Source of the DNA: Squalus acanthias
Taxonomy: Eukaryota
Direction: 5' to 3'
Assembly (NCBI GenBank): GCA_030390025.1
Contig: JASTWF010000244.1
Span: 1-64,000, forward strand
Length of the DNA stretch: 64,000 bases
Within the stretch, counting starts at the first letter, position 1. Each line of letters opens with the position of its first letter. Under the pieces are notes generated by a model. That model was not told the DNA's origin and ran no database searches. It worked only from the letters and a program-made list of their open reading frames with translations. The translations under genes were made by a program, and so were the position numbers. Positions 13,245 through 60,511 of this stretch are shown here, piece after piece.

Positions 13245-13586
13245 AAGCCTTGGATGTGAACATATTTGCAAAACCAAAGAATGTCTTAGTGAATGAAGAT
13301 GTTTCCCTGGAATGTAAAGTTACCGGCTATAGAACACCAACACTCGACCTAACAAATGTAGGTGTCCAGTGGTTGTTTGGGCCCAAAAAGGAAGAGATCT
13401 TTGTCTATAATGGAGGACGACATTTACCAAAAAGACCTGGAGCAAAAATGTCTGAAACCGAATTACAGAAAGGAGATGCTTCACTTCATCTTCCAAATGT
13501 ACAGTTTAATGAAGAAGGAGAATACACTTGTGTTGTAATTGTTACTCCTGATAAGGTAGCAAAGAGTTCAGAAATGCAGGTGTCAG
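13245..13586 (+). CDS. NCR3LG1-like: Exon: V-set Ig domain of a B7-H6 (NCR3LG1)-like IgSF membrane protein
   Basis: TTTAG acceptor ending 13244, G|GTAAGT donor at 13587, phase 1-1. Translation LECKVTG..VGVQWLF..KRPGAKMS..LQKGDASLHLPNVQFNEEGEYTCVVIVTP has the V-set Cys/Trp/Cys core. It resembles B7-H6 (RPGA..GDASLxLP..EExGEYxCxVxVTP) from memory; orthology not tested. Confidence 0.85.
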
Positions 13587-14330
13587 GTAAGTCTCCAAAA
13601 TGTTAACTGTTGTTGATCTCTGTATTAAGTTGTTGGGTTGGGGAAACACTAAGGTACAGTACATTTAAGCATAAAGGTGTAGAATAAACATGCTCAAGGT
13701 AGAATAGGTGATTCATTGGGTTAGCACACTTATCTTTTCACCAATGAAGTCTGGGTTTGAATGCAGCCCAGACTGATGGAATGAGATTCCGCTCTGTCTG
13801 CTAGCAGTATGTGTGAAATGAGTTTGAGCACTCTTAATTTTGGCACAGAATTGGCAATCTCACTCCCGAGACCAGCAGGAAGGCTGTGTGGGAAATTGGA
13901 AACTTACAATGGTGCAGTAGGGGTACTTCTCTGAGGAGAAAGGTGAGGTACAGTGTTGGGGAAGAGTAGAAGAGTTTTAGTCGGTCACAAACACACCCAA
14001 CGAATGAGAATACTCCCAACATTGAAATATATGATGGCTACATAAGCAGTGAAAAAATACAAATTATGCACACAATCCCAACAGAGTATAATTATAAAAC
14101 ATAATTTAAAAATTGCACAAAAAAGTTATATTAATATGGTAGATGTACTACTGGAAATTTGAGGACTTTTAATACCATCACTCTGAACCCTTTGAGAGTG
14201 TATTATTTCCATAGCCCTTAGAATTCTATGGTCTGTCAAGGCCAATTTCTGCAGCAACTCTAACCAAATTCAATGGCATGAGAATATTTCCTGGCTGATT
14301 TGTCCAGGGTTTAGAAAATCTCAATACAAT

Positions 14331-15074
14331 GGGCCAAAAATTGATCCCGCTGCGCGAGAGTACTCACTGCGTACTCTCGCGTATTCTCTCTCCAATTGCC
14401 GGTTTTCTGCATGCACTGCGCATGCGCTGAAAACCGGCACTTGGTCTTTGGAAAAGGGGGCGGTTCCTCGGTGCACCGCGTGCACGCTACAGGCTGCGCG
14501 CACGCTGTGCACTTAGTGCTTTGGACGCGCAGGTAAGGACGGAAGATTTTAGAAACGAAAAAAGGAGGAGTAAGACCCACTTTTAACAAGGTAAGTAGTG
14601 AATTAAGTATTATTTTGAATTTTTTTTAACAGGTATATCTTTTTTAGAGACTTTAAAGACAGGTAAGTTTATTTTTATAACTTTTTAAAAGATTTTAAAT
14701 TTTTTCAAAAATTTAATTTTTTATTTAAAATGGTTAATTTATTTAACTATACTTATTTTATTAATGTGATGGTTTTAAAAAAAAATTTAATTGAGGTTTA
14801 GCTGTTATTTTGTGGGTGTGTAAGATTCATAGCTTTCACAGCACGTATGTGAAACTTATGAATGGAAGATGGTGTGCTGCCGTTGGCTCTAACTGAGTCA
14901 CGTGATCCCACAGCTCGCACGAATTCACTACGCCGGTGGGATACGCAAGCACTGCCCAGCTGATGTCTAGAACATCAAGTTCGTGCGAGCTGGATCTGAA
15001 AAAGCCAACGCGGAGTGAGAGATCGCGCCTGCTCCTTACCCCCGCGGGAACAGAGCGAGATCAATTTCTGGGCC
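14331..15074. mobile_element. Non-autonomous Harbinger-like MITE
   Basis: TIR GGGCCAAAAATTGATC / GATCAATTTCTGGGCC, AAT 3-bp TSD, AT-rich core. Confidence 0.75.
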
Positions 15075-16039
15075 AATAAATATTTTTAAAATGTTATGTA
15101 TAAATAGTGCTGAAGTATTGTTCATGAATTTTAAATGGTTTAACTCCTTTGTAGCCTTACCCTTTCATATCTCTGTAACCACCTCCATGCCTACAAACCC
15201 TGCCCCGTTAATCTGACGGTAACCTCTTAAGTGGGGGGTTAAAATTGCGAAAACTGGTGGGCGGGCACAAGCCCGCCTCCATCCCGTCTCCACGCAATTT
15301 TCATTAAATCGTGTCTGCTGGTCCCGACTGCGTCCCGCCTCTAAGAGGTGGGATAGGCTGTTAAGGCCCTTAACAAGCACTAAATTGCCTCTATAATGCC
15401 ATTTTGAAAGGCCTTTGTGATTTTAACCCTTTTTCTTCGTGAAGCACGCCTGTTCTGAACCACGAATGTGAAACCTGGCGGGAGCACGGATGGATGAATG
15501 AATGAATGATCTGGGAGTGGTGGTGGATGGGAGACATATCTGGGAGTGGTGGTGGATGGGAGACATATCTGGGAGCAGACTTAGGGCTGCTGATTCTCAT
15601 TTTGCCTCCAGGTCCTCTCACAGCAAATGCCAGGCAGTCTTTGCAGACCTTCAATGCAACAGCAATGATGACATCATCAGAGGCGACTTTCAGACTGAAA
15701 ACACTAATTGGTTCATGGGTTCCCACATGCTGGAACTCAGTTGCCCAATTAGATGAAAATCGCATCAATCTCCCACATCCAATTGCAGTCGGGTGGATAA
15801 CATGAAAAGTGGATGACACGACCCCAACCCGCCCCAGGATCAAAATCCAGCCCGATGTCTTTGACCAAGCTTTTGGCCACCCCTCCAAATATCTCCTCCT
15901 TTGCCGTACCATTTTTTGAAACAAATTATGCCTCTCTGAAGTGCCTTTGGAGGTTTATCTACATTAAAGGTTATATAAATACATTGTTGTTGTCCTTCAC
16001 CTCTACCTCCTCTTCCTATTCCACCCCCCCTCTTTGCCT

Positions 16040-16850
16040 CCTCCCCCTCATCTCCCCCTTTCTCCTCGTCTCCCCCTTTCTCCTCATGTCCCCCCCTTTC
16101 TCCTCATGTCTCCCCCTTTCTCCTCGTCTCCCCCTTTCTCCTCATGTCCCCCCCTTTCTCCTCGTCTCCCCCTTTCTCCTCATGTCCCCCCCTTTCTCCT
16201 CATGTCTCCCCCTTTCTCCTCATGTCTCCCCCTTTCTCCTCATGTCCCCCCTTTCTCCTCATGTCTCCCCCTTTCTCCTCATGTCCCCCCCTTTCTCCTC
16301 ATGTCTCCCCCTTTCTCCTCATGTCTCCCCCTTTCTCCTCATGTCTCCCCCTTTCTCCTCATGTCCCCCCCTTTCTCCTCATGTCCCCCCCTTTCTCCTC
16401 ATGTCTCCCCCTTTCTCCTCATGTCTCCCCCTTTCTCCTCATGTCTCCCCCTTTCTCCTCATGTCCCCCCCTTTCTCCTCATGTCCCCCCCTTTCTCCTC
16501 ATGTCCCCCCCTTTCTCCTCATGTCCCCCCCTTTCTCCTCATGTCCCCCCCTTTCTCCTCATGTCCCCCCCTTTCTCCTCATGTCCCCCCCTTTCTCCTC
16601 ATGTCCCCCCCTTTCTCCTCATGTCCCCCTCTTTCTCCTCATGTCCCCCTCTTTCTCCTCATGTCTCCCCCTTTCTCCTCATGTCTCCCCCTTTCTCCTC
16701 ATGTCCCCCTCTTTCTCCTCATGTCTCCTCCTTTCTCCTCATGTCCCCCCCTTTCTCCTCATGTCCCCCCCTTTCTCCTCGTCCCCCCCCCTTTCTCCTC
16801 GTCCCCCCCCCTTTCTCCTCATCTCCCCCCCCCCCCCACTTTCTCCTCAT
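16040..16850. repeat. 20-bp CT-rich minisatellite (~40 units)
   Basis: Unit CTTTCTCCTCATGTC(C/T)CCCC. Confidence 0.95.
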
Positions 16851-17349
16851 CTCCCCCTTCATTCTCATCTCCACTCTTGTGCCCCACCCCAAGTATTTTG
16901 TTCCTCAATGGCTTCCTGTGCATTCCCAGCCCTCTCCATTCCACTGCTGGTAGCAGAGTGTTCTCTCTGCTTTCAAACACCTTCTCTAAACATATCTATT
17001 CCACCATGCTTTTAGTCACCTCTTCTATTCCCTCCCCATCATTTGTGAAGCACCTTGAAACATTTTTGTACATTAAACATGCTATAAAAATGCTTGTTGA
17101 TGTTGGAGGAATTTGGAATGCTTCAATCTGAATTTGAGGTATTGGAGTAGTTACTTAATTCACTCCAGATAGAATTATCCACATCCTTGAAGAAACCGAG
17201 TAGATTATTATATGAGAGAAATACCTGAAGGAAGGAAAGTGGTGCGCTTAGCATACGTTTGCACAACAAAAATTTGATCTGGCTTTAGATGTTTATGGTA
17301 ATGTGCCTTCAGCCTGTCTGACCAATTGTTACATTTATCTTCAACACAG

Positions 17350-17670
17350 CTCAACCAGTGGTCCATTTGTCCACACAACACATTACCATTTTGACTGGTT
17401 CAGAGGGGTCTGTGAGATGTGACGTTACAGGATTTTATCCTTCGGAGCATCAGCTCATCTGGGAGAAGATATCAAAGGACAAAACTGTGACAATAATCAC
17501 AGATATCAGCACTGGTGCCCCAATTTCCAACAGTGATGGAACCTTTAATGTTTCCAGTAGAATGAGAATTGAACCAACAGTGGATGATGATGATAATAAG
17601 TACAGGTGTGTCATGAAGCACCGATCACTTCCTGGTAGTCGTTCACTGGAAACTGTGCTCACAGTGAAAG
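17350..17670 (+). CDS. Exon: C1-set Ig domain, copy 1 (extracellular)
   Basis: CACAG acceptor, AAG|GTATGT donor, 321 bp, phase 1-1. Motifs VRCDVTGFYP, LIWEK, SDGTFNVSS, YRCVMKHRSL. Confidence 0.9.
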
Positions 17671-18451
17671 GTATGTCCTCTTCTTTGCGTAAGATGGGAA
17701 TATTTTTCAGTGCGCTTTTGTTAAATCTTACAATTGTTTAAAATGACTTGTGCCCATTGTTTAACATTGAATTTCTACTGAGGTTTTCATCTAATTTAAA
17801 TCAAGAATTCATCCTTTATTGCTCCACAATGAAAAGACATTAAGAACATAGATAGATTAATTGAATGGGCAAAACTGTGGCAAATGGATTTCAATGTCGG
17901 CAAATTTGAGGGACCTGTAAAGCATTAGAACAGGGTACTTTCTAAATGGTGGTACCCTCAAAAAACTCGATTTTGTCAAACACAATTTCCCTTTCGTAAA
18001 ACTGTGTCTAATTGTATTGTGATTTTCCGAGTGACCTGTTACCACATTGTTAATAAGAGATTCTAGCTTTTTCCCTATTACTGATGTCAGGCTAACTGGC
18101 CTATAGTTCCCTGTTTTCTCTCCCTCCTTTCTTGAACAGCAGTGTTACATTTGCTACCTTCCAATCCACGGGGACCATCCTAGAATCTAGGGAATTCTGG
18201 AAGATCAAAACCAATGCATCCACTAACTTTGCAGCCACCTCTTTTAAAAAGGGTGTAGGCCATTAAGTCCACGAGATTTGTCAGCTTTTAGTCCCATTAA
18301 TTTTTTCCAGTACTTTTTCTTTTCCAATATTAATTTGAGTTCCTCACTCTCATTTGACCCTTGGTTCCCCACAATTTCTGTTATGTTCTTTGTATCCTTT
18401 ACTGTAAAGATAGACACAAAATATTTGTTTAACTTCTCTGTCATTTCCTTA

Positions 18452-19078
18452 TACAAACCAGAGCGTGGCTACTGAGCGACCAGGGCTATCCGCTGACCAC
18501 CTGGCTCATGACTCCGGTGCGCAACCCAAGCACACGTGGGCAGCATGCATATATCGAAAGCCATGCTGCCACATGAAATGTGATCAAGCAGACCATTGGG
18601 GTACTTAAACAACACTTCCACTGCCTGGACCACTCTGGAGGAGTCCTGCTGTACTCGCCAGAGCGTGTCTCAAGATTAGTCGTGCTTTGCTGCATGCTGC
18701 TCAACCTCGCCACCATGAGGGCACAGGTTTTGCCACCAGGTATACGGCGAAGAGCTGAGGACGAGGAGGAGGCAACCAAGACAGCCCCTTTCTGGTTGGT
18801 CTGCCCGTGATCAACTGATCCGACTGCAGTGCCAGTGAACGTAACCCCAATTCCCCATTCACCCACAGTCCCACACACTTACCTTCCCTCTGTTGTGGGC
18901 CATCACAGCATCGTCTTGGCCACAATGCTAAAAAAAATAAAAGCCACCACAAAACAAACATTCCAAACCAACTTTAGACATCAATCCATCCAATATTACA
19001 TAACAAAGTCAACTAATCACCCTTGTGCATTCCCTTAGTGCCTGTCTTGTGTGTGCCTTTGCTTATCCTAGTGCTGTT
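18452..19078 (+). mobile_element. Duplicated part of the Harbinger remnant
   Basis: Matches 29212-29835. Confidence 0.75.
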
Positions 19079-22086: not shown

Positions 22087-25000
22087 TGTCGTAACACAAT
22101 ACAGCTTCCTGTGACTTGAACTTTATTGCATCACTTCCTGTGATTAGTCCAGGATAAATACTGGACTGATCAGTTGGATCCTGGAGAGGCATAGAGTAAG
22201 ACCTCTTTTGTATGTAGCACCTTTTTAGTTGATTAAAGCTTACTTTAAGTTCACCACGCGTAAGGCTCATTCTTACGACAATTTAATCAACTTTGGAAAA
22301 CTTCGCACTCAAACTTTTTGGACGAACTCGGAACTAAGGATCCAGGAAATCACCCATCATGGAAAACATCCTTAAACCATCGCGTCTTGACTTGGACCCA
22401 AACACCCCAGCAGCCGGTAAGGTGTGGAAACACTGGTATCGCACGTTTGACAATTTTCTTGAATATTGCAAGGCTGATGATGACTCAAAGTTGCGGATAC
22501 TCATCAACTGTGTCACCTCGAATGTATTTCAGTATGTGGAGGAATGGGGCAGTTATGAGGAGGCAATTCGGACGCTTAAGAGACTATATACTAAGACACC
22601 GAATGAGGTCTATGCCAGACATCTACTAGCTACAGCCCAACAAGGGCCGGAGGAATCCATTGATAAATTCCTCCAAGAGCTTCGCAGACTTAGTATGGAC
22701 TGTAACTTTCAGGCGGCCTCAGCTGAGCTGTACCGTGAAGAAATGATCCATGATGCTTTCATCTGCGGGCTTGCCTCCCCATTTATACGCCAGCGTCTAC
22801 TGGAAAGTAAGATACTTGAGCTTCAGAGAGCTTATGACATGGCTTGCTCTCTAGATCTGGCAAAAAGAAATGCAGACCTTTATACAGTGCCCAGACCTCG
22901 GTCTGCTGCCTTAACTACAGTCAGGCAATTTAAGAGGCCACAGGTGAACTCTATTAGGGAGGACTTTATCCCTGACGATCAATCTGATGACTTCACTGAT
23001 GAAGAGGATGATGACCCCACTGTGGCAGCCTCTTGGCAATCTAAGAAATGCTTCTTTTGTGGTGATGAGTTTCACCCTCGGAAATTCTGCCCTGCTCGCA
23101 ATGCGTTTTGCAGTCATTGCAACAAAAAGGGTAATTTTGCAAAGGTTTGCCTATCAAGAGCCTCTACGAGGGCTTATCAAGCTAAGTCCTACCGAACTGC
23201 CCCGGTAAGGGCCTATCAAGATGTTCCGGCTAAAATCTATCGTGCTTCCTCTCGGGTTTTCTCTCGAAGAAACACACCTAGAGTTTCAGCCACTCTTTGT
23301 GCAACGACACCAATTACAGCTGCTTGTCCTCAGAACCTATTCCATGCAGCTACAAAAGCATCAATTAATGGACATACTTTAGATGCCTTAATTGACTCAG
23401 GTAGCACTGATAGTTTCATTAGGGAACAGATTGTTGCAGAGTTAAAGCTACATGTTTTCCCATCGGACCAGGCAATTGCGATGGCTCAGTCAACACTTAA
23501 TACCAGAATTTCTGGCTTTTGTATGGTTGAAATAACACTTAATGGTCACAGGTATCCCTCCACCCGGCTTTCGGTGCTCAAGGACTTATGTAGTGATCTT
23601 ATCTTAGGGCTGGATTTTCAAAAGCAGCATAAGAAGCTCACCATTGAGTTCGGCGGATCCAAACCTGAACTCACTATTTCTAATATACTACCTCGATTAC
23701 CGTTCTGTGCATTGTCAGCAGCTTCACTGGATGAACCCTCACTGTTTACCAGTATCCCTCCTCGATGCAAACCGATTATAACAAAGTCACGACGTTTCAG
23801 TCAGGAAGACCAGTCTTTTATTGCGGCTGAGATTTCTCGGCTTTTAGCAGAGGATATCATCGAGCCTTGTTCGTCGCCATGGCGCGCCCAGGTCGTTATT
23901 GTTAAGAACCCTCTACAACCTCACAAGAAACGGCTGTGCATTGACTATTCACAGACCATCAATCAATATACGGACTTGGACGCATACCCATTGCCGCGCA
24001 TCGATGATATGGTTAATAAACTGGCTGAGTACACGGTGTTCTCAACATATGATCTGAAAAGTGCCTATCATCAGGTACCCTTGAAGGTCTCAGACAAGCA
24101 GTATACGGCCTTTGAAGCCAATGGACGGCTGTATCAATTTCGTCGCCTCCCCTTTGGGGTCACTAATGGAGTGGCTGTCTTCCAGCGAGCAATGGATGAC
24201 CTGGTCAAACAGGAAGACTTGAAGGATACGTTTCCTTATCTGGACAATATTACTGTCGCAGGTCGCAATCAGCGGGAACATGACGCCAATCTCCAACGAT
24301 TTTGGGATGCACTCCAGCACCGTAATTTGACATTAAATGCGGCTAAATCCATTGAGTCACAACCAACCATCAACATCCTTGGCTATTGTGTGGGCAATGG
24401 CATCATTAAACCTGACCCTGAAAGGCTTCGCCCACTCCAAGAACTCCCGCCACCTAAGAATCCGGCCTCCTTGCGCCGGGCCCTCGGCCTGTTTGCATAC
24501 TATGCTCAATGGATTCCTAACTTCTCGGACCGAATCCAACCTCTACTGAAGGCCAGCACATTCCCACTAGACACAGCGGCTGTTGCAGCCTTTAACCTCC
24601 TGAAAAAACAGTTGGAGAAAGCGGCTCTTCACTCCATCGATGAGAGTCTTCCTTTTGTTGTTGAGTGTGATGCCTCGGAGGTGGCGATCTCGGCCACTCT
24701 GAATCAGGAAGGTCGTCCGGTGGCATTTTTGTCCAGGACTTTTCAAGGGGCTGAGCTACATTATCCTCCAGTCGAGAAAGAAGCTACAGCCATCATAGAG
24801 GCAGTACGGAAGTGGAGTCATCTCCTAGCTCGCCAGCACTTTACTTTAATCACGGACCAGCGATCGGTCGCCTTCATGCTCGATAATCGAAAACGGACCA
24901 AAATTAAAAATAATAAAATCCAGCTTTGGCGGCTGGAATTGGCCTCTTTTGGTTACACCATCCACTATCGACCTGGCAAGGAGAATGTGGCTCCGGATAC

Positions 25001-26527: not shown

Positions 26528-27172
26528 TACTCCGTCCAACAGAGTTGCAACTGTTCGGAGGCCTATAGACTACGCCCACTAGTGTTTTTTTCCCCTTATT
26601 ATTCCTTATCTCCACCCAAACTGTTTCATTATCCTGATCTTTTGACCCAATATCATTTCTCTGTATTACAGTGATTCCTTCCTTTATTAACATAGCCACC
26701 CCACCTCCCCTTCCTTCCTGCCTGTCCTTCCTGATCGTTAAATAACCTGGTATGTTTAATTCCCAGGCATTGTCACCCTGCAGCCATGTTTCTGTAATGG
26801 CCACAAGATCATACCCATATGTAGTTATTTGTGCCATTAACTCGTCTATTTTGTTACGAATGCTACGTGCATTCAGATAGAGAACTTTCAAATATGTTTT
26901 GTGACACTTAGTGCCTGCTTTTGCCTTTTTTATTACTTTACCTTTTACTCCATACCTTCTGCCCCTTCCTGACACACTCTGGTTTTTAATTTCCCCACTG
27001 CTACCTAAGTCTATGACCTTCTCTGTTGTCATTTTTATTATTTGCTCTCTAGGAACCTCCCCCAACTAGTTAGTTTAAAGCCCTCTCTACAGCCCTAGTT
27101 ATATGATCCGCCAGGACTTTAGTCCCAGCACTGGCCAAGTGAAGCCCGTCCCAACGGAACAGCTCCCTCCTG

Positions 27173-29835
27173 CCCCTCTTTGCCTCCTCCCCCTCGTCTC
27201 CCCCTTTCTCCTCGTCTCCCCCCCTTTCTCCTCATCTCCCCCCCTTTCTTCTCGTCCCCCCCTTTCTCCTCATCTCCACTCTTGTGCCCCACCCCAAGTA
27301 TTTTGTTCCTCAATGGCTTCCTGTGCATTCCCAGCCCCCTCCATTCCACTGCTGGTAGCAGAGTGTTCTCTCTGCTTTCAAACACCTTCTCTAAACATAT
27401 CTATTCCACCATGCTTTTAGTCACCTCTTCTATTCCCTCCCCATCATTTGTGAAGCACCTTGAAACATTTTTGTACATTAAACATGCTATAAAAATGCTT
27501 GTTGATGTTGGAGGAATTTGGAATGCTTCAATCTGAATTTGAGGTATTGGAGTAGTTACTTAATTCACTCCAGATAGAATTATCCACATCCTTGAAGAAA
27601 CCGAGTAGATTATTATATGAGAGAAATACTTGAAGGAAAGAAAGTGGTGTGCTGATCATACGTTTGCACAACAAAAATTTGACCTGGCTTTAGATGTTTA
27701 TGGTAATGTGCCTTCAGCCTGTCTGACCAATTGTTACATTTATCTTCAACACAGCTCAACCAGTGGTCCATTTGTCCACACAACACATTACCATTTTGAC
27801 TGGTTCAGAGGGGTCTGTGAGATGTGACGTTACAGGATTTTATCCTTCGGAGCATGAGCTCATCTGGGAGAAGATATCAAAGGACAAAACTGTGACAATA
27901 ATCACAGATATCAGCACTGGTGCCCCAATTTCCAACAGTGATGGAACCTTTAATGTTTCCAGTAGAATGAGAATTGAACCAACATTGGATGATGATGATA
28001 ATAAGTACAGGTGTGTCATGAAGCACCGATCACTTCCTGGTAGTCGTTCACTGGAAACTGTGCTCACAGTGAAAGGTATGTCCTCTTCCTTGCGTAAGAT
28101 GGGAATATTTTTCAGTGCGCTTTTGTTAAATTGTTCAAAATGACTTGTGCCCATTGTTTAACATTGAATTTCTACTGAGGTTTTCATCTAATTTAAATCA
28201 TGAATTCATCCTTTAATTCTCCACAATGAAAAGACATTTAGAACATAGATAGATTAATTGAATGGGCAAAACTGTGGCAAATGGATTTCAATGTAGGCAA
28301 ATGTGAGGTCATCCACTTTAGACCTAAAAAGCATAGAACAGGGTACTTTCTAAATGGTGGTACCCTCAAAAAACTCAATTTTGTCAAACACAATTTCCCT
28401 TTTATAAAACTGTGTCTAATTGTATTGTGATTTTCCGAGTGATCTGTTACCACATTGTTAATGAGAGATTCTAGCTTTTTCCCTATTACTGATGTCAGGC
28501 TAACTGGCCTATAGTTCCCTGTTTTCTCTCCCTCCTTTCTTGAACAGCAGTGTTACATTTGCTACCTTCCAATCCACGGGGACCATTCCAGAATCTAGGG
28601 AATTCTGGAAGATCAAAACCAATGCATCCACTAACTTTGCAGCCACCTCTTTTAAAAAGGGCGTAGGCCATTAAGTCCACGAGATTTGTCAGCTTTTAGT
28701 CCCATTAATTTTTTCCAGTACTTTTTCTTTTCCAATATTAATTTGAGTTCCTCACTCTCATTTGACCCTTGGTTCCCCACAATTTCTGTTATGTTCTTTG
28801 TGTCCTTTACTGTAAAGATAGACACAAAATATTTGTTTAACGTCTCTGTCATTTCCTTATTCCCCATGAAATTTTTTTTGTCTCTGCCTCTAAGGGGCCC
28901 ATGTTTATTTTCACTAATCTCTTACTTTTTGGCTCTTACAATCTGTTCTTATATTTCTTGCTAGTTTACTCTCATTCTATTTTCTCCCTCTTGATCAATT
29001 TCTTAGTCATTTTTAAAACTCTCTCAATCCTCAGGCTTACTACTCTATTTGATAACATTATAAGCTTCTTCTTTTCCTACATTACAACAGTGACTCCACT
29101 TCAAAAGTACTTCATTGGCTGTAAAGCGCTTTGAGACGTTCGGTGGTCGTGAAAGGCACTATATAAATGCAAGTCTTTCTTCTTTCTAATCTAATACTAG
29201 CATTTCCTTCTACAAACCAGAGAGTGGCTACTGGGCGACCAGGGCTATCGGCTGACCACCTGGCTCATGACTCCGGTGCGCAACCCAAGCGCACGTGGGC
29301 AGCATGCATATATCGAAAGCCATGCTGCCACACGAAATGTGATCAAGCAGACCATTGGGGTACTTAAACAACGCTTCCGCTGCCTGGACCGCTCTGGAGG
29401 AGTCCTGCAGTACTCGCCAGAGCGTGTCTCAAGATTAGTCGTGCTTTGCTGCATGCTGCTTAACCTCGCCACCATGAGGGCACAGGTTTTGCCACCAGGT
29501 ATACGGCGAAGAGCTGAGGAAGGGAGGAGGCAACCAAGACAGCCCCTTTCTGGTTGGTCTGCCCGTGATCAACTGATCCGACTGCAGTGCCAGTGAACGT
29601 AACCCCAATTCCCCATTCACCCGCAGTCCCACACCTTACCTTCCCTCTGTTATGGGCCATCACAGCATCGTCTTGGCCACAATGCTAAAAAAATAAAACC
29701 CACCACATAACAAACATTCCAAACCAACTTTATACATCAATCCATCCAATATTACATAACAAAGTCAACTAATCACCCTTGTGCATTCCCTTAGTGCCTG
29801 TCTTGTGTGTGCCTTTGCTTATCCTAGTGCTGCTA
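27173..29835 (+). repeat. Direct segmental duplication, copy 2
   Basis: Matches 16027-19080. Confidence 0.92.
27755..28075 (+). CDS. Exon: C1-set Ig domain, copy 2 (duplicate)
   Basis: Same splice sites as 17350-17670; only 2 substitutions seen (Q>E, V>L); frame open. Confidence 0.85.
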
Positions 29836-36702: not shown

Positions 36703-36813
36703 AGCCTGTGAAATCTTCTGCCGCAGGTGCGGTTGCTGGAAGTATAATTGGTACATTGCTGTTCTGTGCACTATTTTTTGCTGGATTTTATGCTTACAGA
36801 AAATTAAAAAAAG
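36703..36813 (+). CDS. Exon: transmembrane segment plus basic stop-transfer
   Basis: TTTCAG acceptor, AAG|GTAATG donor, 111 bp, phase 1-1. Encodes EPVKSSAAGAVAGSIIGTLLFCALFFAGFYAYRKLKK. Confidence 0.85.
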
Positions 36814-38580: not shown

Positions 38581-39021
38581 CTACTCCAAAAATTACTGAA
38601 TTCAACAAACCTCTCGACATTCGCCATTTTGAGGTAGCCATCATCCGTTGCCAAATTACCGGATTTAAACCACAGGGGATTAGACTTGCTTTATTCTTAA
38701 AGAGGAAGAGGGATGAAAACCAAAAGAGAATTTTTTGCTGGAATAGTATGGACCAGATCGCAAAGAACCAAGTGAAAACAAAGCACCACGGAAAACTAGA
38801 TGAATTGCAGCTTCCTATGAATGAGTATGAACAAGATGCATTCTTTAAGTCCTTGGAACCGGAATATGAAACTAACAGTGACGGAACTTCCAATTTAAAG
38901 TGTGATATCAAAACGTATCCTGATTTATACAGCGATGATGGGGCTCAATTAACTATTGAAGTTCAACATATAACTCTTGCTTCACCTGTTATGAAAACTG
39001 TAACACTGGATGTTAAAGGAG
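38581..39021 (+). CDS. Exon A1: divergent C1-like Ig domain downstream of TM
   Basis: TTTTGATTAG acceptor, G|GTAAAT donor, 441 bp open, phase 1-1. Reads TPKITEF..IRCQITGFKP..NSDGTSNLKC..DDGAQLTIEVQHITL..TVTLDVKG. Confidence 0.8.
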
Positions 39022-39274: not shown

Positions 39275-39655
39275 TGCCACCAAAGATTTCAAATATTGTG
39301 GTACCACCTCACACCAATCATAATGAGTCTGTGGCCTTGGCTTGTCCAATCAATGGATTTAAACCAAGACCATTAAGTATCAAATGGCAACAAATCGGAA
39401 AGAATAATGATTTGAAAGAAATCGTTGCGCTGGATAAGGACAACAGAATAATCCACCCTAGTGACAAAGGGAAGTCGTCCAAGTATCACCATTCCATCAG
39501 TGAGATGGAGTATGATGACAAAACATACAGCATCACCAGTGTACTAGTTATTGTGCCAGATATACTGCAAGACCAGGACACGAAGTTCATCTGTAAGGTA
39601 CAGCATGAGTGCACCGGCAGTAACCAACAGAGAGAAATAATTCTAAAGATTCGAG
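39275..39655 (+). CDS. Exon B1: C1-set Ig domain downstream of TM
   Basis: Pyrimidine tract plus AAAG acceptor, GAG|GTATGT donor, phase 1-1. Motifs LACPINGFKPRPLSIKW..DKTYSITSVL..FICKVQHE. Confidence 0.85.
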
Positions 39656-40113: not shown

Positions 40114-40410
40114 CCACTCCAAAACTGGACCCAATAAAGTATGAAGCAGAAGAGGCTGTGACTTTAAACTGTCGAATACATTCTTTTTACCCCAGTGAAA
40201 TCACAGTTACATGGCTCAAAAATGGTGAGAAAATGACAGAAAAATCCAAAGTTAGTGCGGCAACTCTGGGAAAGGATGGACTCTATTACTTGACAAGTAG
40301 TGTGAAGATTGTACCTACCAGAGCTGATGTTGAGAAGAAATACACATGTCAAGTAGAACATGAGAGCCTAACAGAGCCAGTGGAAGCTGACTGGGTACTC
40401 GGTCAACTGG
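40114..40410 (+). CDS. Exon C1: C1-set Ig domain downstream of TM
   Basis: TTTCAG acceptor, G|GTAAGT donor, phase 1-1. Motifs LNCRIHSFYPSEITVTWLKNG..DGLYYLTSSV..YTCQVEHESL. Confidence 0.88.
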
Positions 40411-41586: not shown

Positions 41587-42027
41587 CTACTCCAAAAATT
41601 ACTGAATTCAACAAACCTCTCGACATTCGCCATTTTGAGGTAGCCGTCATCCGTTGCCAAATTACCGGATTGAGACCACAGGGGATTAGACTTGCTTTAT
41701 TCTTAAAGAGGAAGGGGGATGAAAACCAAAAGAAAATTTTTTGCTGGAATAGTATGGACCAGATCGCAAAGAACCAAGTAAAAACAAAGCACCACGGAAA
41801 ACGAGATGAAGTGCAGCTTCTTATGAATGAGTATGAACAAGATGCATTCTTTAAGTCCTTGGAACCGGAATATGAAACTAACAGTGACGGAACTTCCAAT
41901 TTAAAGTGCGATATCAAAACGTATCCTGATTTATACAGCGATGATGGGGCTGAATTAACTATTGAAGTTCAACATATAACTCTTGCGTCACCTGTTATGA
42001 AAACTGTAACACTGGATGTTAAAGGAG
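41587..42027 (+). CDS. Exon A2: duplicate of exon A1
   Basis: Same length and splice sites as A1, open frame; about 9 nonsynonymous and 3 synonymous differences by eye. Confidence 0.75.
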
Positions 42028-42280
42028 GTAAATCATGAACATTTGCACTTAATCATTAATGTTTATGCTATGTGATTCTGTTCTTTTTTGTTAACTTGTG
42101 TATTTGTGCGTATGAAGTGACATTCATGTGGTTAATAGTGGTAATGCAGTTCTGCCATCTGTAGACTCTAAATCATAGAAAATTCAGACAGCAAAATAAT
42201 ATTTTCTTGCTCTTATTAACTCGTAAAAATTCTTTCAGTTTAAATAAGCGATTTCTTTGTTTTGTTTTTCTTTCCCAAAG

Positions 42281-44269
42281 TGCCACCAAAGATTTCAAAT
42301 ATTGTGGTGCCACCTCACACCAATCATAATGAGTCTGTGGCCTTGGCTTGTCCAATCAATGGATTTAAACCAAGACCATTAAGTATCAAATGGCAACAAA
42401 TCGGAAAGAATAATGATTTGAAAGAAATCGTTGCGCTGGATAAGGACAACAGAATAATCCACCCTAGTGTAAGGGGTTCGGTCGTAGGTGCTTGTGCGGG
42501 GTTAGGCCTTCGTCGCCTAATCCTATTGCTTGCTCTGGTCTCCGGCCAGCCTTGTTGCAATAAGCACCTGTGAGTGGTTCGACCCACTCGCCCTTACGGT
42601 TCTAACACTGGACTTAGGTGCGAGAGCAGTAATGCAGAGAAAACTCAAATAGACCCGGTTGAATAGTACGAAATGGAAATCTTTATTGCATAACGTCCAA
42701 AATCATGAAGTACATGTCATAGGCACAAATTAATGACAGTACAAGTATACATACATTCATAAAACTTGGTCTAGGGTAATGAGGAACGCACGGCACATCG
42801 TAAAAAGGGGAACACATTATATTTATCCTTAATAAAACCACCCTCCCCTATCAATACCTACACTAATCTAGATTTGTAGGATCGAGAAACATGCTCACCA
42901 CTCGTGATACTTCGGAGAATTTTAAAGTGAGGCGCTCGGCTCGTTTCGCTGCAGCGCCTGACTGTCACGTGGTTGGAGGGGTCTCTGTACGCCTCTTGTT
43001 TATCTCCTCTGCTGCGACCAGCAGGCCAGATCGTCTGTTGTCATGAAGAACTGTGTAGAACTCGGACACTTGGTAAAATTCGAAGAAGAGTCTTCCTGTG
43101 CCGACACCGGTTGTCGGTAGAATTCAAAGAAGAGTCTTTGACCGGTTCGTGGAATAACCGGTAGAGTTCAAAAATGGTCTATATATTTTCGGGCGCGGTC
43201 GGGGTTTACTGACCGCGGCGGCATGTGTATTCTTCTTCGTCTCGTCTCGTCTCGTCTCTTCGGGCCTTCGGGTCCAGACACCGTTTACCGACCCTCGGGA
43301 TGGTGCACCCGGTCACTTGCCTTTGTTGAGGCGGCTCGTTCCGTTTGAGCTCCACCCAACATTCGAAGTCCAGCTCTCAAAAGAGCTTCAGCAGTCAGCA
43401 AAGAGGAATCAGAGTTCAGCAGCAAGACAAGAGACCGATGGACATTTGTTGTCTATAGTTATAGTGCTGGGTTCCCTTATCTCCCGCCCAAATCTTAATG
43501 TTCATCTTTTGTAAAATCTTGGCGCTCAAAATTCCCAGTATGGGGTGATTCTTGTTTGTAATGGGTTTCGGTAGCGTCTGAGACTGGCCAACTACCCGTT
43601 AATGTTTTTCCCATTGTGGAACCGGCTAGGAGTCTCCCTGGCGGGGTTTTGGAGGCCTCCGAATACTTGTGTAAGCACCCGAGAATGGCTCTCTCATTGT
43701 AGAGCCGTGGGGAATTTGCGTATTGATGTATCTGGATGGGCCTTTGATTGCCCAGTACAATGGTCCTTACTTGTGCATGGAAAACGATTCCAGCACTTAT
43801 ATCTCTTGCTATTGTGTCGAATGCAGACAGGTCGCATCCTGTCTTTATCAATGTTTGCTGAGTATTATCCAATCTTATACTGAAATGTTTATTCGAACGC
43901 CATCTTGTCTGCCCACTGAAAATTCTGGAAACTTCTGTCACAATGCGTGGCGGCCATTTTACAGGCTTCTTGTGTCCGTTTTAATCATGACAGCATTTCG
44001 TTTAAATAAACTGCTTAAACGAATCTGTATTTCTCTCGTTATTTCAAATCGCGATAATTGCGAATTTTACACTAGTGACAAAGGGAAGAAGTCCAAGTAT
44101 CACCATTACATAAGTGAGATGGAGTATGACGACAAAACATACAACATCACCAGTGTACTAGTTATTGTGCCAGATATACTGCAAGACCAGGACACGAAGT
44201 TCATCAGTAAGGTACAGCATGAGTGCACCGGCAGTGACCAACAGAGAGAAATAATTCTGAAGATTAGAG
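42281..44269 (+). pseudogene. Exon B2, disrupted by a 1.6-kb insertion
   Basis: B-exon sequence is split at ..IHPS| by the insert 42468-44071 and resumes as SDKGKKSKY. The F-strand Cys is mutated (FISKVQH). Confidence 0.88.
42468..44071. mobile_element. Probable solo LTR (1604 bp)
   Basis: TGTAA...TTACA termini, CTAG 4-bp TSD, no recognisable coding domain. Confidence 0.75.
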
Positions 44270-44728: not shown

Positions 44729-45025
44729 CCACTCCAAAACTGGACCCGATAAAGTATGAAGCAGAAGAGGCTGTGACTTTAAACTGTCGAATACATTCTT
44801 TTTACCCCAGTGAAATCACAGTTACATGGCTCAAAAATGGTGAGAAAATGACAGAAAAATCCAAAGTTAGTGCGGCAACTCTTGGAGAGGATGGACTCTA
44901 TTACTTGACAAGTAGTGTGAAGATTGGACCTACCGGAGCTGATGTTGAGATGAAATACACATGCCAAGTAGAACATGAGAGCCTAACAGAGCCAGTGGAA
45001 GCTGACTGGGTACTCGGTCAACTGG
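44729..45025 (+). CDS. Exon C2: duplicate of exon C1
   Basis: Intact splice sites and frame; LNCRIHSFYP..YTCQVEHESL. Confidence 0.75.
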
Positions 45026-51323: not shown

Positions 51324-54300
51324 TGTGGTAACACAATACAGCTTCCTGTGACTCGAACTTTATTGCATCACTTCCTGTGATTAGTCCAGGATAAATACGG
51401 GACTGATCAGTTGGATCCTGGAGAGGCATAGAGTAAGACCTCTTTTGTATGTAGCACCTTTTTAGTTGATTAAAGCTTACTTTAAGTTCACCACGCGTAA
51501 GGCTCATTCTTACGACAATTTAATCAACTTTGAAAAACTTCGCACTCAAACTTTTTGGACGAACTCGGAACTAAGGATCCAGGGAATCACCCATCATGGA
51601 AAACATCCTTAAACCATCGCGTCTTGACTTGGACCCAAACACCCCAGCAGCCGGTAAGGTGTGGAATCACTGGTATCGCACGTTTGACAATTTTCTCGAA
51701 TATTGCAAGGCTGATGATGACACAAAGTTGCGGATACTCATCAACTGTGTCACTCCGAATGTATTTCAGTATGTTGAGGAATGGGGCAGTTACGAGGAGG
51801 CAATTCGGACGCTTAAAAGACTATATACTAAGACACCGAATGAGGTCTATGCCAGACATCATCTAGCTACAGCCCAACAAGGGCCGGAGGAATCCATTGA
51901 TAAATTCCTCCAAGAGCTTCGCAGACTTAGTATGGACTGTAACTTTCAGGCGGCCTCAGCTGAGCTGTACCGTGAAGAAATGATCCGTGATGCTTTCATC
52001 TGCGGGCTTGCCTCCCCATTTATACGCCAGCGTCTACTGGAAAGTAAGACACTTGAGCTTCAGAGAGCTTATGACATGGCTTGCTCTCTAGATCTGGCAA
52101 AAAGAAATGCAGACCTTTATACAGTGCCCAGACCTCGGTCTGCTGCCTTAACTACAGTCAGGCAATTTAAGAGGCCACAGGTGAACTCTATTAGGGAGGA
52201 CTTTATCCCTGACGATCAATCTGATGACTTCACTGATGAAGAGGATGATGACCCCACTGTGGCAGCCTCTTGGCAATCTAAGAAATGCTTCTTTTGTGGT
52301 GATGAGTTTCACCCTCGGAAATTCTGCCCTGCTCGCAATGCGTTTTGCAGTCATTGCAACAAAAAGGGTAATTTTGCAAAGGTTTGCCTATCAAGAGCCT
52401 CTACGAGGGCTTATCAAGCTAAGTCCTACCGAACTGCCCCGGTAAGGGCCTATCAAGATGTTCCGGCTAAAATCTATCGTGCTTCCTCTCGGGTTTTCTC
52501 TCGAAGAAACACACCTAGAGTTTCAGCCACTCTTTGTGCAACGACACCAATTACAGCTGCTTGTCCTCAGAACCTATTCCATGCAGCTACAAAAGCATCA
52601 ATTAATGGACATACTTTAGATGCCTTAATTGACTCAGGTAGCACTGATAGTTTCATTAGGGAACAGATTGTTGCAGAGTTAAAGCTACATGTTTTCCCAT
52701 CGGACCAGGCAATTGCGATGGCTCAGTCATCACTTAATACCAGAATTTCTGGCTTTTGTATGGTTGAAATAACACTTAATGGTCACAGGTATCCCTCCAC
52801 CCGGCTTTCGGTGCTCAAGGACTTATGTAGTGATCTTATCTTAGGACTGGATTTTCAAAAGCAGCATAAGAAGCTCACCATTGAGTTCGGCGGATCCAAA
52901 CCTGAACTCACTATTTCTAATATACGACCTCGATTACCGTTCTGTGCATTGTCAGCAGCTTCACTGGATGAACCCTCACTGTTTACCAGTATCCCTCCTC
53001 GATGCAAACCGATTATAACAAAGTCACGACGTTTCAGTCAGGAAGACCAGTCTTTTATTGCGGCTGAGATTTCTCGGCTTTTAGCAGAGGATATCATCGA
53101 GCCTTGTTCGTCGCCATGGCGCGCCCAGGTCGTTATTGTTAAGAACCCTCTACAACCTCACAAGAAACGGCTGTGCATTGACTATTCACAGACCATCAAT
53201 CAATATACGGACTTGGACGCATACCCATTGCCGCGCATCGATGATATGGTTAATAAACTGGCTGAGTACACGGTGTTCTCAACATATGATCTGAAAAGTG
53301 CCTATCATCAGGTACCCTTGAAGGTCTCAGACAAGCAGTATACGGCCTTTGAAGCCAATGGACAGCTGTATCAATTTCGTCGCCTCCCCTTTGGGGTCAC
53401 TAATGGAGTGGCTGTCTTCCAGCGAGCAATGGATGACCTGGTCAAACAGGAAGACTTGAAGGATACGTTTCCTTATCTGGACAATATTACTGTCGCAGGT
53501 CGCAATCAGCGGGAACATGACGCCAATCTCCAACGATTTTGGGATGCACTCCAGCACCGTAATTTGACATTAAATGCGGCTAAATCCATTGAGTCACAAC
53601 CAACCATCAACATCCTTGGCTATTGTGTGGGCAATGGCATCATTAAACCTGACCCTGAAAGGCTTCGCCCACTCCAAGAGCTCCCGCCACCTAAGAATCC
53701 GGCCTCCTTGCGCCGGGCCCTCGGCCTGTTTGCATACTATGCTAAATGGATTCCTAACTTCTCGGACCGAATCCAACCTCTACTGAAGGCCAGCACATTC
53801 CCACTAGACACAGCGGCTGTTGCAGCCTTTAACCTCCTGAAAAAACAGTTGGAGAAAGCGGCTCTTCACTCCATCGATGAGAGTCTTCCTTTTGTTGTTG
53901 AGTGTGATGCCTCGGAGGTGGCGATCTCGGCCACTCTGAATCAGGAAGGTCGTCCGGTGGCATTTTTGTCCAGGACTTTTCAAGGGGCTGAGCTACATTA
54001 TCCTCCAGTCGAGAAAGAAGCTACAGCCATCATAGAGGCAGTACGGAAGTGGACTCATCTCCTAGCTCGCCAGCACTTTAGCTTAATCACGGACCAGCGA
54101 TCGGTCGCCTTCATGCTCGATAATCGAAAACGGACCAAAATTAAAAATAATAAAATCCAGCTTTGGCGGCTGGAATTGGCCTCTTTTGGTTACACCATCC
54201 ACTATCGACCTGGCAAGGAGAATGTGGCTCCAGATACCCTCACACGAGCATTCTGCTCCGCCATGGCACCCTCTACGCTCGTAGACATCCATGATGGGTT

Positions 54301-55764
54301 GTGTCATCCGGGCGTCACTCGCATGCTACACTTCGTGCGGTCCCGAAATCTCCCATTCTCTACCGGGGATGTAAAGAAGATGTGCTCGGACTGCAGAGTC
54401 TGTGCGGAATTGAAACCTCAGTTTTTCCGCCCCTCGGGTGGTATACTCATACATGCGACCCAGCCAATGCAACGGCTTAGCATCGATTTTAAGGGGCCGT
54501 TGCCCTCTTCAACTCGCAACACTTATCTATTGACCATGGTCGATGAGTATTCCCGTTTTCCGTTTGCCTTTCCCTGCCCCAATATGCTGACGACCACGGT
54601 TATCAGCTGCCTTGAGCAGGTATTTGCTTTCTGTGGCATGGCATCCTATGTTCATTCGGATCGGGGCCCTTCTTTTATGTCAGGAGAACTCAAGGCCTAT
54701 CTCTCGGAACGGGGTATTGCTGCCAGCAGAACGACGCCTTATCATCCGGTCGGGAATGGGCAAGTCGAGCGTTTTAACGCTATCATCTGGAATGCGGTAC
54801 GTCTGGCTTTGAGATCTCGGGGCCTACCCAACCAGCAATGGGAAGCAGTACTTCCAGACGCATTACACTCCACACGGTCCCTCCTTTCGACCGCCACAAA
54901 TACGACACCTCAAGAACGGTTCTTCCGATTTCAGCGTCGCTCATCCGATGGGATATCTCTCCCGTCGTGGCTGACTGCACCGGGACCAGTGCTACTCCGA
55001 AGATATGTCCGGGCGTCTAAGAATGACCCCCTGGTAGATGAGGTTGAGCTCACTGACGTCAACCCTACCTACGCCTATATTCGGTATCCTGACGGTCGGG
55101 AATCTACTGTGTCATTGCGGGATCTGGCTCCCTGCCCGCCGAAACATAGAGGGACACCAGGGGATGATATTGTACCAGGCACATCTCTGGGCTCGCCAGG
55201 TGCCTCTCATCACGATCTGGATCTGACGCCGGCTTGTACCTCACTCCAGCGTGCCGACCTGGGGCAGACTGAATATGAGCCCGTCGGGGCTCGCACGCGC
55301 AGCCACGATCCACCCCGTACCATACGCTCGGAAACGGATCTGCCACAGCCCTGCCCGACACCCGTTCGGGCACCAGTACACAGTCAGGATCGTCCTGACC
55401 CCTCACAGAGCGGGCTGGATCACTCGGACTCTGGTCCACGGCCCGCGGTGGGTAAACGGGCTAGGGGCCCTCTACCGCTACGAGAACCCAAACGGGTGCG
55501 GCTCTCCCTCGTCCGGCGGCTACGAAATGGAGGGAGCATCCCGGCCTCCTAATCTTTTTGGGGGGGAGAATGTGGTAACACAATACAGCTTCCTGTGACT
55601 CGAACTTTATTGCATCACTTCCTGTGATTAGTCCAGGATAAATACGGGACTGATCAGTTGGATCCTGGAGAGGCATAGAGTATGACCTCTTTTGTATATA
55701 GCACCTTTTTAGTTGATTAAAGCTTACTTTAAGTTCACCACACGTAAGGCTCATTCTTACGACA
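51324..55764 (+). mobile_element. Full-length Gypsy LTR retrotransposon (copy 3)
   Basis: 194-bp LTRs at 51324-51517 and 55571-55764 (3 mismatches seen), GTTAG TSD. Inserted in CR1 ORF2. Confidence 0.97.
51596..55552 (+). CDS. Gag-Pol polyprotein, 1318 aa
   Basis: Near-identical to 22359-26315, uninterrupted. Confidence 0.95.
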   Translation: MENILKPSRLDLDPNTPAAGKVWNHWYRTFDNFLEYCKADDDTKLRILINCVTPNVFQYVEEWGSYEEAIRTLKRLYTKTPNEVYARHHLATAQQGPEESIDKFLQELRRLSMDCNFQAASAELYREEMIRDAFICGLASPFIRQRLLESKTLELQRAYDMACSLDLAKRNADLYTVPRPRSAALTTVRQFKRPQVNSIREDFIPDDQSDDFTDEEDDDPTVAASWQSKKCFFCGDEFHPRKFCPARNAFCSHCNKKGNFAKVCLSRASTRAYQAKSYRTAPVRAYQDVPAKIYRASSRVFSRRNTPRVSATLCATTPITAACPQNLFHAATKASINGHTLDALIDSGSTDSFIREQIVAELKLHVFPSDQAIAMAQSSLNTRISGFCMVEITLNGHRYPSTRLSVLKDLCSDLILGLDFQKQHKKLTIEFGGSKPELTISNIRPRLPFCALSAASLDEPSLFTSIPPRCKPIITKSRRFSQEDQSFIAAEISRLLAEDIIEPCSSPWRAQVVIVKNPLQPHKKRLCIDYSQTINQYTDLDAYPLPRIDDMVNKLAEYTVFSTYDLKSAYHQVPLKVSDKQYTAFEANGQLYQFRRLPFGVTNGVAVFQRAMDDLVKQEDLKDTFPYLDNITVAGRNQREHDANLQRFWDALQHRNLTLNAAKSIESQPTINILGYCVGNGIIKPDPERLRPLQELPPPKNPASLRRALGLFAYYAKWIPNFSDRIQPLLKASTFPLDTAAVAAFNLLKKQLEKAALHSIDESLPFVVECDASEVAISATLNQEGRPVAFLSRTFQGAELHYPPVEKEATAIIEAVRKWTHLLARQHFSLITDQRSVAFMLDNRKRTKIKNNKIQLWRLELASFGYTIHYRPGKENVAPDTLTRAFCSAMAPSTLVDIHDGLCHPGVTRMLHFVRSRNLPFSTGDVKKMCSDCRVCAELKPQFFRPSGGILIHATQPMQRLSIDFKGPLPSSTRNTYLLTMVDEYSRFPFAFPCPNMLTTTVISCLEQVFAFCGMASYVHSDRGPSFMSGELKAYLSERGIAASRTTPYHPVGNGQVERFNAIIWNAVRLALRSRGLPNQQWEAVLPDALHSTRSLLSTATNTTPQERFFRFQRRSSDGISLPSWLTAPGPVLLRRYVRASKNDPLVDEVELTDVNPTYAYIRYPDGRESTVSLRDLAPCPPKHRGTPGDDIVPGTSLGSPGASHHDLDLTPACTSLQRADLGQTEYEPVGARTRSHDPPRTIRSETDLPQPCPTPVRAPVHSQDRPDPSQSGLDHSDSGPRPAVGKRARGPLPLREPKRVRLSLVRRLRNGGSIPAS

Positions 55765-58700: not shown

Positions 58701-59359
58701 TCTGAGGAAGGATGTTCTTGCCATGGAGGGGATGCAGCAAAGATTCACCAGACTGATACCTGGGATGGCAGGAATGATGTATGAAGAGAGATTGGGTCGG
58801 TTAGGCTTATATTCGCTGGAGTTTACAAGAATGAGAGGGGATCTCATTGAAACTTATAAAATTCTAACAGGACTAGACAGACTAGATGCAGGAAGGATGT
58901 TCCCGATGGCGGGGGAGTCCAGAACCAGGGGTCGCAGTCTAAGGATAAGGGGTAAGCCATTTAGGACTAAGATGAGGAGGAATTTCTTCACCCAGAGAGT
59001 GGTGAACCTGTGGAATTCTCTACCACACAAGGCAGTTGAGGCCAATTCATTAAATATATTCAAGAAGGAGTTAGATATATTTCTTAAGGCTAAAGGGATC
59101 AAGGGATATGGGGAGAAAGCAGGGACAGGGTAGTGAATTTGGATGATCAGCCATGATCTCATTAAATGGCGGAACAGGCTCGAGGGGCCGAATGGCCTAC
59201 TCCTGCTCCTATCTTCTATGTTTCTATGTAATGCCATCTGTAGACTCTAAATCATAGAAAATTCAGACAGCAAAATAATATTTTCTTGCTCTTATTAACT
59301 CGTAAAAATTCTTTCAGTTTAAATAAGCGATTTCTTTGTTTTGTTTTTCTTTCCCAAAG

Positions 59360-59740
59360 TGCCACCAAAGATTTCAAACATTGTGGTGCCACCTCACACC
59401 AATCATAATGAGTCTGTGGCCTTGGCTTGTCCAATCAATGGATTTAAACCAAGACCATTAAGTATCAAATGGCAACAAATCGGAAAGAATAATGATTTGA
59501 AAGAAATCGTTGCGCTGGATAAGGACAGCAGAACAATCTATCCTAGTGACAAAGGGAAGAAGTCCAAGTATCACCATTCCATCAGTGAGATGGAGTGTGA
59601 CGACAAAACATACAACATCACCAGTGTACTAGTTATTGTGCCAGATATACTGCAAGACCAGGACACGAAGTTCATCTGTAAGGTACAGCATGAGTGCACC
59701 GGCAGTGACCAACAGAGAGAAATAATTCTAAAGATTAGAG
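59360..59740 (+). CDS. Exon B3: intact copy of exon B
   Basis: 381 bp, same splice sites as B1, both canonical Cys retained. Confidence 0.78.
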
Positions 59741-60199
59741 GTATGTAATATTTTTGACAATACCTTGTATAGAACAATGGATTACATTTTGTTTCCAGAT
59801 ACTGTTTCCTTGTTTTTTGTAATGCAACAAAATTGCTAATTTTGTTTGGCAAATCCTGTGAAGAGTGACATGTCCTCAGCGCTGTATTTCTTTAATAACT
59901 CCTTGAAGACAGTGATACTTTTACAAGGGAAGTATTCAGAATGCATCCAAGAATATTCAGAACTCAAATATTTAATGGGGAAACATATTAGCTGATTACC
60001 TTGGAGTCACTGATTTAAATGAGCTTGTTGTGTAACTTTTTATTTTATCCTTGGGTCTTATTTCAATATTTTCAGAACACAATGGATTAAATGTTCTGGT
60101 CATTGGCTGTGGATAGGCAGAGAATCTAGTCCACAATATCTCTAATCTGCTTGTGTTAAAGCCTGCGGTAATTTTCTTTTTGTGTGTTTTTTTTTTCAG

Positions 60200-60511
60200 C
60201 CACTCCAAAACTGGACCCAATAAAGTATGAAGCAGAAAAACTAGTTGCTAAAGAGGCTGCGACTTTAAACTGTCGAATACATTCTTTTTACCCCAGTGAA
60301 ATCACAGTTACATGGCTCAAAAATGGTAAGAAAATGACAGAAAAATCCAAAGTTAGTGCGGCAACTCTGGGAAAGGATGGACTCTATTACTTGACAAGTA
60401 GTGTGAAGATTGGACCTACCAGAGCTGATGTTGAGAAGAAATACACATGCCAAGTAGAACATGAGAGCCTAACAGAGCCAGTGGAAGCTGACTGGGTACT
60501 CGGTCAACTGG
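60200..60511 (+). CDS. Exon C3: copy of exon C with 5 extra codons (KLVAK)
   Basis: 312 bp, intact AG/GT, open frame. Confidence 0.78.

Follow-up and report, generated by a model that had tools for sequence, protein, structure and literature searches.

The window analysed here is the first 64 kb (positions 1 to 64,000, forward strand) of the 716-kb Squalus acanthias contig JASTWF010000244.1 (C1615), in a genome of 3.7 Gb. It carries a gene that, by its sequence, is a member of the B7-H6 (NCR3LG1) family, a shark paralog, in which the exon for the transmembrane (TM) helix is followed by a chain of immunoglobulin (Ig) domains designated A, B and C. The architecture of this known gene is real, ancient and odd. 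The chain after the TM very probably lies in the cytosol of a type I protein; C1-set domains are not normally found inside the cell. The overall best explanation, which is held as probable, is a shark B7-H6 paralog with an NKp30-binding V domain outside the cell and a cytosolic Ig chain that serves as a docking scaffold.

All exons named in the initial annotation are present on the + strand over the span it gave; the intact ones are each a multiple of 3 in length, have AG/GT ends and are in phase 1-1, and the TM exon lacks a stop codon, as had been claimed. The B exon that the annotation had placed in brackets is split by an insertion. The scripted join V-C1b-TM-A-B-C-A yields 777 amino acids with no stop and a single hydrophobic segment. 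The features of the gene in the window are the following.

13245..13586, + strand: V-set exon, B7-H6-type ligand domain with a C-x4-T-P-x-K FG loop (Pfam V-set, 3e-11)
17350..17670, + strand: extracellular C1 exon, copy a (Pfam C1-set, 1e-9)
27755..28075, + strand: extracellular C1 exon, copy b, 98% identical in amino acids to copy a; used in the C1→TM joint
36703..36813, + strand: TM exon, phase 1-1, acidic before the helix, RKLKK after it, no stop (joints 28075→36703 and 36813→38581)
38581..39021, + strand: post-TM domain A1, predicted C-type Ig fold interrupted by one long disordered stretch, F-strand Cys absent
39275..39655, + strand: post-TM domain B1, C1-set (Pfam C1-set, 4e-10; A→B and B→C joints)
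40114..40410, + strand: post-TM domain C, first copy, C1-set (Pfam C1-set, 8e-21; C→A joint)
41587..42027, + strand: domain A2, a recent duplicate of A1 (94% in amino acids)
42281..44269, + strand: domain B2 exon, broken by an insertion; a run contig of an unbroken copy skips exactly 1608 nt
42468..44071, strand not assigned: 1604-bp TG...CA insertion in B2 with a 4-bp target-site duplication
44729..45025, + strand: domain C, second copy
59360..59740, + strand: domain B3
60200..60511, + strand: domain C, third copy

Evidence for splicing comes from contigs of 6 of 11 listed public runs, belonging to two studies, in which exact GT..AG joints were located. The C1→TM joint occurs in 4/4 runs, with a short side of up to 114 letters. 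As for the TM→A joint (36813→38581), which the initial annotation had singled out as the junction to look for, it is present exactly in the contigs of 3/6 runs (X1, X5 and X6), spanning both studies, with a short side of 25-29 letters. A→B and B→C joints were also found in run contigs, C→A in 5/6 runs and C→B in one run. The run contigs that span the region show V, one C1 and TM; in a 598-nt contig from X5, 133 unmatched upstream letters are followed by a single C1 and the TM, and this contig, judged by its depth and by the length left over, appears to be the one that enters A. Neither a C1→C1 joint nor a TM-skipping C1→A joint is among the joints listed, with 58 further joints standing outside this list. 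Two separate genes were considered and rejected: there is no leader or V exon between TM and A, the TM→A joint was seen, and the fused order is found in 43 relatives.

Regarding topology, 67 homologs were mapped with domain profiles, and 44 of them begin V-C1-A-B-C; once the partial model P0009, which has no TM exon, was dropped, a set of 43 proteins was left (25 chondrichthyan and 18 amphibian). The C-terminal flank of the TM is more basic than the N-terminal one in all 43 (mean +2.4 vs -1.4), and the maximum hydropathy over 19 residues after the TM is ≤1.47 in 41/43, the other two reaching 1.85 within domain B. A second TM was rejected on the grounds that the join has a single hydrophobic segment and that 41/43 relatives have no TM-like segment after the TM. 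The outer C1 is the only domain where N-glycosylation sequons exceed the shuffled level (1.58 vs 0.90 ± 0.12) and occupy a conserved column; those of A-G are at chance. Both canonical Cys are present in the outer domains V (41/43) and C1 (43/43); after the TM, the canonical pair on strands B and F is complete in 43/43 for domains B and C, in 4/43 for A, 0/39 for D, 17/31 for E and 4/29 for F, the Cys column of domain G being uncertain. Because of the single TM, the basic C-terminal flank, the lack of a sequon excess and the frequent loss of the disulfide, the chain is in all likelihood cytosolic; the initial annotation's proposal of a type I protein whose C1-type domains face the cytosol is supported by the TM→A joints, the one TM and its acidic N- and basic C-flanks.

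In Pfam, the V domain matches V-set, and C1, B and C match C1-set; domain A has no Pfam match. A profile built from 17 A domains matches the Fc of IgA and IgM, beta-2-microglobulin and T-cell receptor constant domains, and the AlphaFold model of A (predicted local distance difference test, pLDDT, 82) is a C-type Ig sandwich with a single disordered insert at residues 61-81. Compared with the constant domains of HLA-DP, SIRP-gamma and B7-H6, this model has VIA-align Z scores of 10.5-10.8, tied with some C2 and V rows, and the ESM atlas places A in C1- and C2-set clusters; domain A is therefore modelled as C-type, with C1 the likely set. The AlphaFold model of a sawshark relative (pLDDT 77) shows nine beta-sandwich domains, with a single helix where the TM lies, the relative orientation of the domains being undefined (predicted template modelling score, pTM, 0.38). 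A two-copy complex prediction for B-C-D of the sawshark relative scored 0.41, equal to one control at 0.41.

Several points weigh against the reading of a spliced cytosolic chain in this gene. Domains B and C keep both canonical Cys in every relative, as lumenal C1 domains do, and the sequon and Cys counts come from related, non-independent sequences. The RNA nature of the runs is a guess for 10 of the 11, one run being unlabelled, and the short side of the TM→A joint is under the 31-letter bridging mark. Between exon A and that of a near paralog there are 16.5 non-synonymous against 3.5 synonymous changes, small numbers that give no sign of purifying selection. The window contig is unplaced, and its synteny is borrowed from a chromosome-scale contig (C10), to which it is tied by sequence only. 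The run contigs, moreover, differ from the window by a few percent and may represent alleles, paralogs or related species; because of this difference the joints speak for the family, whose splicing pattern they establish, and the TM→A joint is not assignable to the window copy.

As for the identity of the gene, the best PDB matches of the V domain are human B7-H6 (E 4e-14), then CD276 (1e-8) and TAPBPR (1e-4); the C1 domain matches B7-H6 at 6e-13, at ranks 2-4, level with a multi-domain IgG hybrid. In the excerpted text of Li et al. (PMC3135353), 11 residues of B7-H6 contact NKp30 (its Table II), and T127, P128 and K130 make all the polar contacts. Six of these 11 are identical in the window V by the PDB alignment, T127, P128 and K130 among them, and C-x4-T-P-x-K is present in 36/43 relatives; with these contact residues conserved, the V domain probably binds NKp30. 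When exon B was used to search for homologs, 18 proteins of cartilaginous fishes came back, including one from nurse shark deposited as B7H6 (QTT61906.1, 1092 amino acids), and the window gene groups with the latter in a V+C1 tree, built without human B7-H6 or another B7 outgroup. Relatives from nurse shark, Discoglossus, Lacerta and Pantherophis carry the names B7H6 or NCR3LG1.

The genomic setting was read from C10, where a copy 97% identical to the window V+C1 is colinear with it upstream. Human B7-H6 has KCNJ11 and NUCB2 as neighbours; in the shark, KCNJ11 is found at a distance of 23 kb from the end of the C10 cluster, an RPS13-like exon (1 of 3 genome matches) is located 0.35 Mb upstream, and an exon labelled NUCB2-like by a motif only has no PDB or Pfam match. 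The human gene maps to 11p15.1, according to the portion of PMC2715080 available. A V-set plus C1-set ectodomain, phase-1 exons and a single TM were all found in the shark gene, the leader being seen only in paralogs; its tail is made of Ig domains, and the Gag-like tail of the human type, with ITIM (immunoreceptor tyrosine-based inhibitory motif), SH2 and SH3 motifs, was not found in it. The Gag-like tail looks derived in humans and not family-defining. An identity as a SIRP- or tapasin-like gene was rejected, the V domain being far closer to B7-H6 and Ig domains occurring also after the TM. The likeness to B7-H6 that the initial annotation had noticed was right and stronger than it claimed.

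The layout is not confined to sharks. The full plan, leader (L)-V-C1-TM-A-B-C-D-E-F-G, was found in chimaera, sharks, rays, Xenopus and Discoglossus (in the last under the NCBI name NCR3LG1), and partial layouts in bichir, lungfish, caecilian, newt and squamates. A profile search of representatives detected V-C1-TM-A in 55/138 new proteins, one of which repeats the whole unit; the 20 representatives named, two of which bear the name NCR3LG1, include bichir, lungfish, coelacanth, caecilian, frogs, lizards and a snake, and neither bird nor mammal is among the names seen, most matches carrying no name. In a quick five-species tree, each of A-G forms one shark+frog clade (Shimodaira-Hasegawa approximate likelihood ratio test, SH-aLRT, 85-96). 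Between shark and frog, A-G share an identity of 0.27-0.34 and V and C1 one of 0.34-0.36; B-G and the ectodomain are conserved to about the same degree. By these comparisons the seven-domain tail predates the split of sharks and bony vertebrates. A shark-only family was consequently rejected, with the same layout present in amphibians, bichir, lungfish and squamates; given the same finding and the deposited nurse-shark B7H6, the earlier suggestion of an undescribed cartilaginous-fish receptor family is not supported.

Other arrangements were observed among the proteins collected. In the gene models P0035 and P0038 (both Xenopus) and P0034, V-C1-TM-A(-A) is followed by tachylectin domains and a further region without a Pfam match, and in P0082, also only a gene model, by a peptidase M60 domain. 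P0120, P0147 and P0165 (frogs, reedfish), P0076 (turtle) and P0036 are V-C(-C)-TM receptors in which C1-type domains follow the TM in an order other than A-G; these are possibly further families with cytosolic Ig chains.

Returning to the window copy, its chain extends past the window as B-C-A-B-C-A-B-C up to contig position 77526 and is followed by acidic tail exons; terminal exon candidates are the acidic exons at contig positions 80201, 81269 and 84503, the last two with a read-through stop. The A-B-C tandem repeats have 93-97% DNA identity, domains D-G are absent from this copy, and all 15 of the A, B and C copies that have no interruption are free of stops and flanked by AG/GT. The repeated A-B-C order listed in the initial annotation does exist; judging from sequence identity, it is the product of recent tandem duplication in the window copy, the family plan being A-B-C-D-E-F-G. 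The two C1 exons, too, are by their amino acid identity recent duplicates, and copy a sits within a 1.7-kb duplication (96% identity). From the ends of the 1604-bp insertion in B2 we infer a solo long terminal repeat-like element; read-through of the broken exon meets a stop at ~42571. A leader exon was not found within the window; a colinear paralog suggests a place for it ~7 kb before the start of the contig, which would begin inside intron 1.

The introns of the gene hold two retrotransposon copies, 22087-26527 and 51324-55764, which are 98.7% identical and have 1325-amino-acid open frames, presumably Ty3/Gypsy-like by their motifs; a related fragment in inverted orientation lies at 11107-13184. 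A C/T-rich tandem repeat with a 20-bp period is found upstream of each C1 copy (15968-17128 and 27079-27533).

Several paralogs accompany the window gene. The minus strand of C1615 holds an intact A-G copy (C1615:338327-309389); in the C10 copy, A is frameshifted. A broken remnant at C1615:105983-142099 has a frameshifted leader, a partial B, a split C, half of D and an intact G. The paralog at C1615:234851-265515 is 99% identical in V+C1, and all that separates its TM from the acidic tail is a broken A-type fragment; in run X6 the TM is spliced straight to an acidic tail exon that matches this paralog exactly, which implies a form without post-TM Ig domains. A second subfamily (C10:45467860-45517244 and C1615:504799-454710) has a tail of divergent A domains alternating with acidic spacer exons, and the horn-shark model P0086 has seven such A repeats. 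Family V exons number nine on C1615 and four on C10 (45.39-45.67 Mb), with several near-identical pairs; the cluster may vary in copy number, with C1615 as an unplaced or alternative haplotype of it.

Regarding function, the V-C1 ectodomain would be displayed on the cell surface like that of human B7-H6, and the V domain would engage NKp30 through its FG loop. The tail begins within a few residues of the membrane and has no enzyme domain; ITIM-like matches occur in 3/5 proteins scanned, mostly inside predicted domains and not common to all. Because it has neither an enzyme domain nor a conserved tyrosine motif, the tail is read as a binding scaffold, and there is about an even chance that it works by binding cytosolic partners; the Ig chain would in this way anchor the ligand or set its amount at the surface. 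As the second B exon is broken, the window copy would give one of two forms: a short one that ends after A-B-C-A, or a long one in which this exon is skipped in frame.

One rival explanation has the post-TM domains outside the cytosol, by inverted or dual insertion or through a secreted or lumenal product, so that the C1 domains would work outside the cell. Elsewhere, C1-set domains are extracellular (PMC11926128), and the complete Cys pairs of B and C, the lack of a TM in the partial model P0009 and the extra hydrophobic segments before A in P0166 and P0176 would fit such a product; on the other hand, the N-terminal leader, the acidic N-flank and basic C-flank in 43/43, the restriction of the conserved sequon to the outer C1, the disulfides lost in A, D, E and F and the lack of a TM-skipping C1→A joint among those listed make it very unlikely. 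A different proposal leaves the tail in the cytosol and makes it a modular intracellular sensor or decoy for pathogen or stress proteins, which switches on display or clustering of the ligand and changes its domain content fast under pathogen pressure. Within a single cluster the tails are indeed very labile in content, being of the types A-G, (ABC)n, repeated A with acidic spacers and TM-to-acidic-tail; tachylectin follows A in Xenopus members and an M60 peptidase in another member, and the human tail is Gag-like in the portion of PMC2715080 available; yet B-G are as conserved between shark and frog as the ectodomain, which suits a partner in the host more than a target in a pathogen, there is no known ligand, and the frog fusions are gene models, so that this role is regarded as improbable. 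Equally speculative, and unlikely as it stands, is its extension to an ancestral, two-sided B7-H6 of jawed vertebrates, a natural killer (NK) cell ligand outside with the seven-domain chain inside as an exchangeable cytosolic sensor of infection or stress that triggers display, later swapped for lectin modules in frogs and for a retroviral Gag remnant in humans.

It is also possible, if doubtful, that the family layout is real and the window copy is decaying or mis-assembled, the (ABC)n order and the doubled C1 being neutral or artefactual and the transcripts coming from intact paralogs; this is compatible with the cytosolic scaffold as the best explanation for the family. The broken B exon, the missing D-G, the leader off the contig, the broken neighbours, the 93-97% identity of the repeats and the absence of C1→C1 among the joints listed all agree with decay. 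Against it, none of the 15 uninterrupted A, B and C copies has lost its reading frame or splice ends, and the copies have diverged by several percent and carry distinct insertions, as a simple assembly duplicate would not. Joints of the types C→A and C→B, from runs of two studies, need a repeated order, and among the mapped copies only the window gene has one; back-splicing of a canonical paralog may be an alternative source of these joints.

Concerning novelty, the gene family is already known, its sequences are public and a nurse-shark member with the tail has been deposited under the name B7H6. No description of a B7-H6 tail with Ig domains was found in the literature searched, which consisted mainly of titles and abstract openings, with the main shark and Xenopus B7H6 papers outside this coverage. 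The Xenopus B7H6 cluster was reportedly described in Flajnik 2012, and the balance tips slightly towards the extra domains having been remarked on there or in later papers of the group studying shark and Xenopus B7H6. In the excerpts of PMC13262535 and PMC11926128, B7-H6 is treated only in terms of its V-C1 ectodomain; neither B7H6 nor NKp30 gave a match in the supplement of PMC3964593.

The interest of the architecture lies in the kind of domain involved. C1-set domains are a hallmark of antibodies, T-cell receptors and MHC (major histocompatibility complex) proteins; if the topology is true, a chain of the C1 type sits on the cytosolic side with an order kept since the split of sharks and bony vertebrates, which would imply an intracellular role and a fold that tolerates loss of its disulfide. 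The comparison suggests that the Gag-like tail of human B7-H6 replaced an older tail. Reverse signalling through B7-H6, a tumour-associated NK ligand, and control of its surface amount would become testable in Xenopus or in transfected cells. The sensor version, if true, would add a class of C1-set domains that work in the cytosol without disulfides.

In comparison with known systems, human B7-H6 shares with the shark gene the V-C1-TM ectodomain, the FG-loop residues T127, P128 and K130 and the KCNJ11 neighbour. The human protein has 454 amino acids and a Gag-like tail with ITIM, SH2- and SH3-binding motifs, as given in the excerpted PMC2715080; the shark tail, instead, is a chain of Ig domains with no conserved tyrosine motif, and the gene lies in a multi-copy cluster. 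Nurse-shark B7H6 belongs to the same V+C1 clade and has the same V-C1-TM-A-B-C start, but its tail is the ancestral A-B-C-D-E-F-G, whereas in the window copy D-G are missing, the C1 exon is doubled, and the tail consists of (A)BC repeats and acidic exons. The amphibian and squamate NCR3LG1 models (Discoglossus, Lacerta, Pantherophis) and the Xenopus cluster have V-C1-TM-A followed by position-orthologous domains; their identity is ~30%, and in some Xenopus members tachylectin modules after A replace B-G.

SIRP and tapasin/TAPBPR also have V + C1 ectodomains and appear among the fold and sequence matches, but their V scores are far below that of B7-H6 (1e-4 vs 4e-14) and every one of their Ig domains lies outside the cytosol. 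Titin and obscurin are beads-on-a-string cytosolic Ig scaffolds, often without the disulfide; their domains are of the I-set and belong to soluble muscle proteins, whereas the post-TM domains of the shark protein are of the C1 type and hang from a TM helix.

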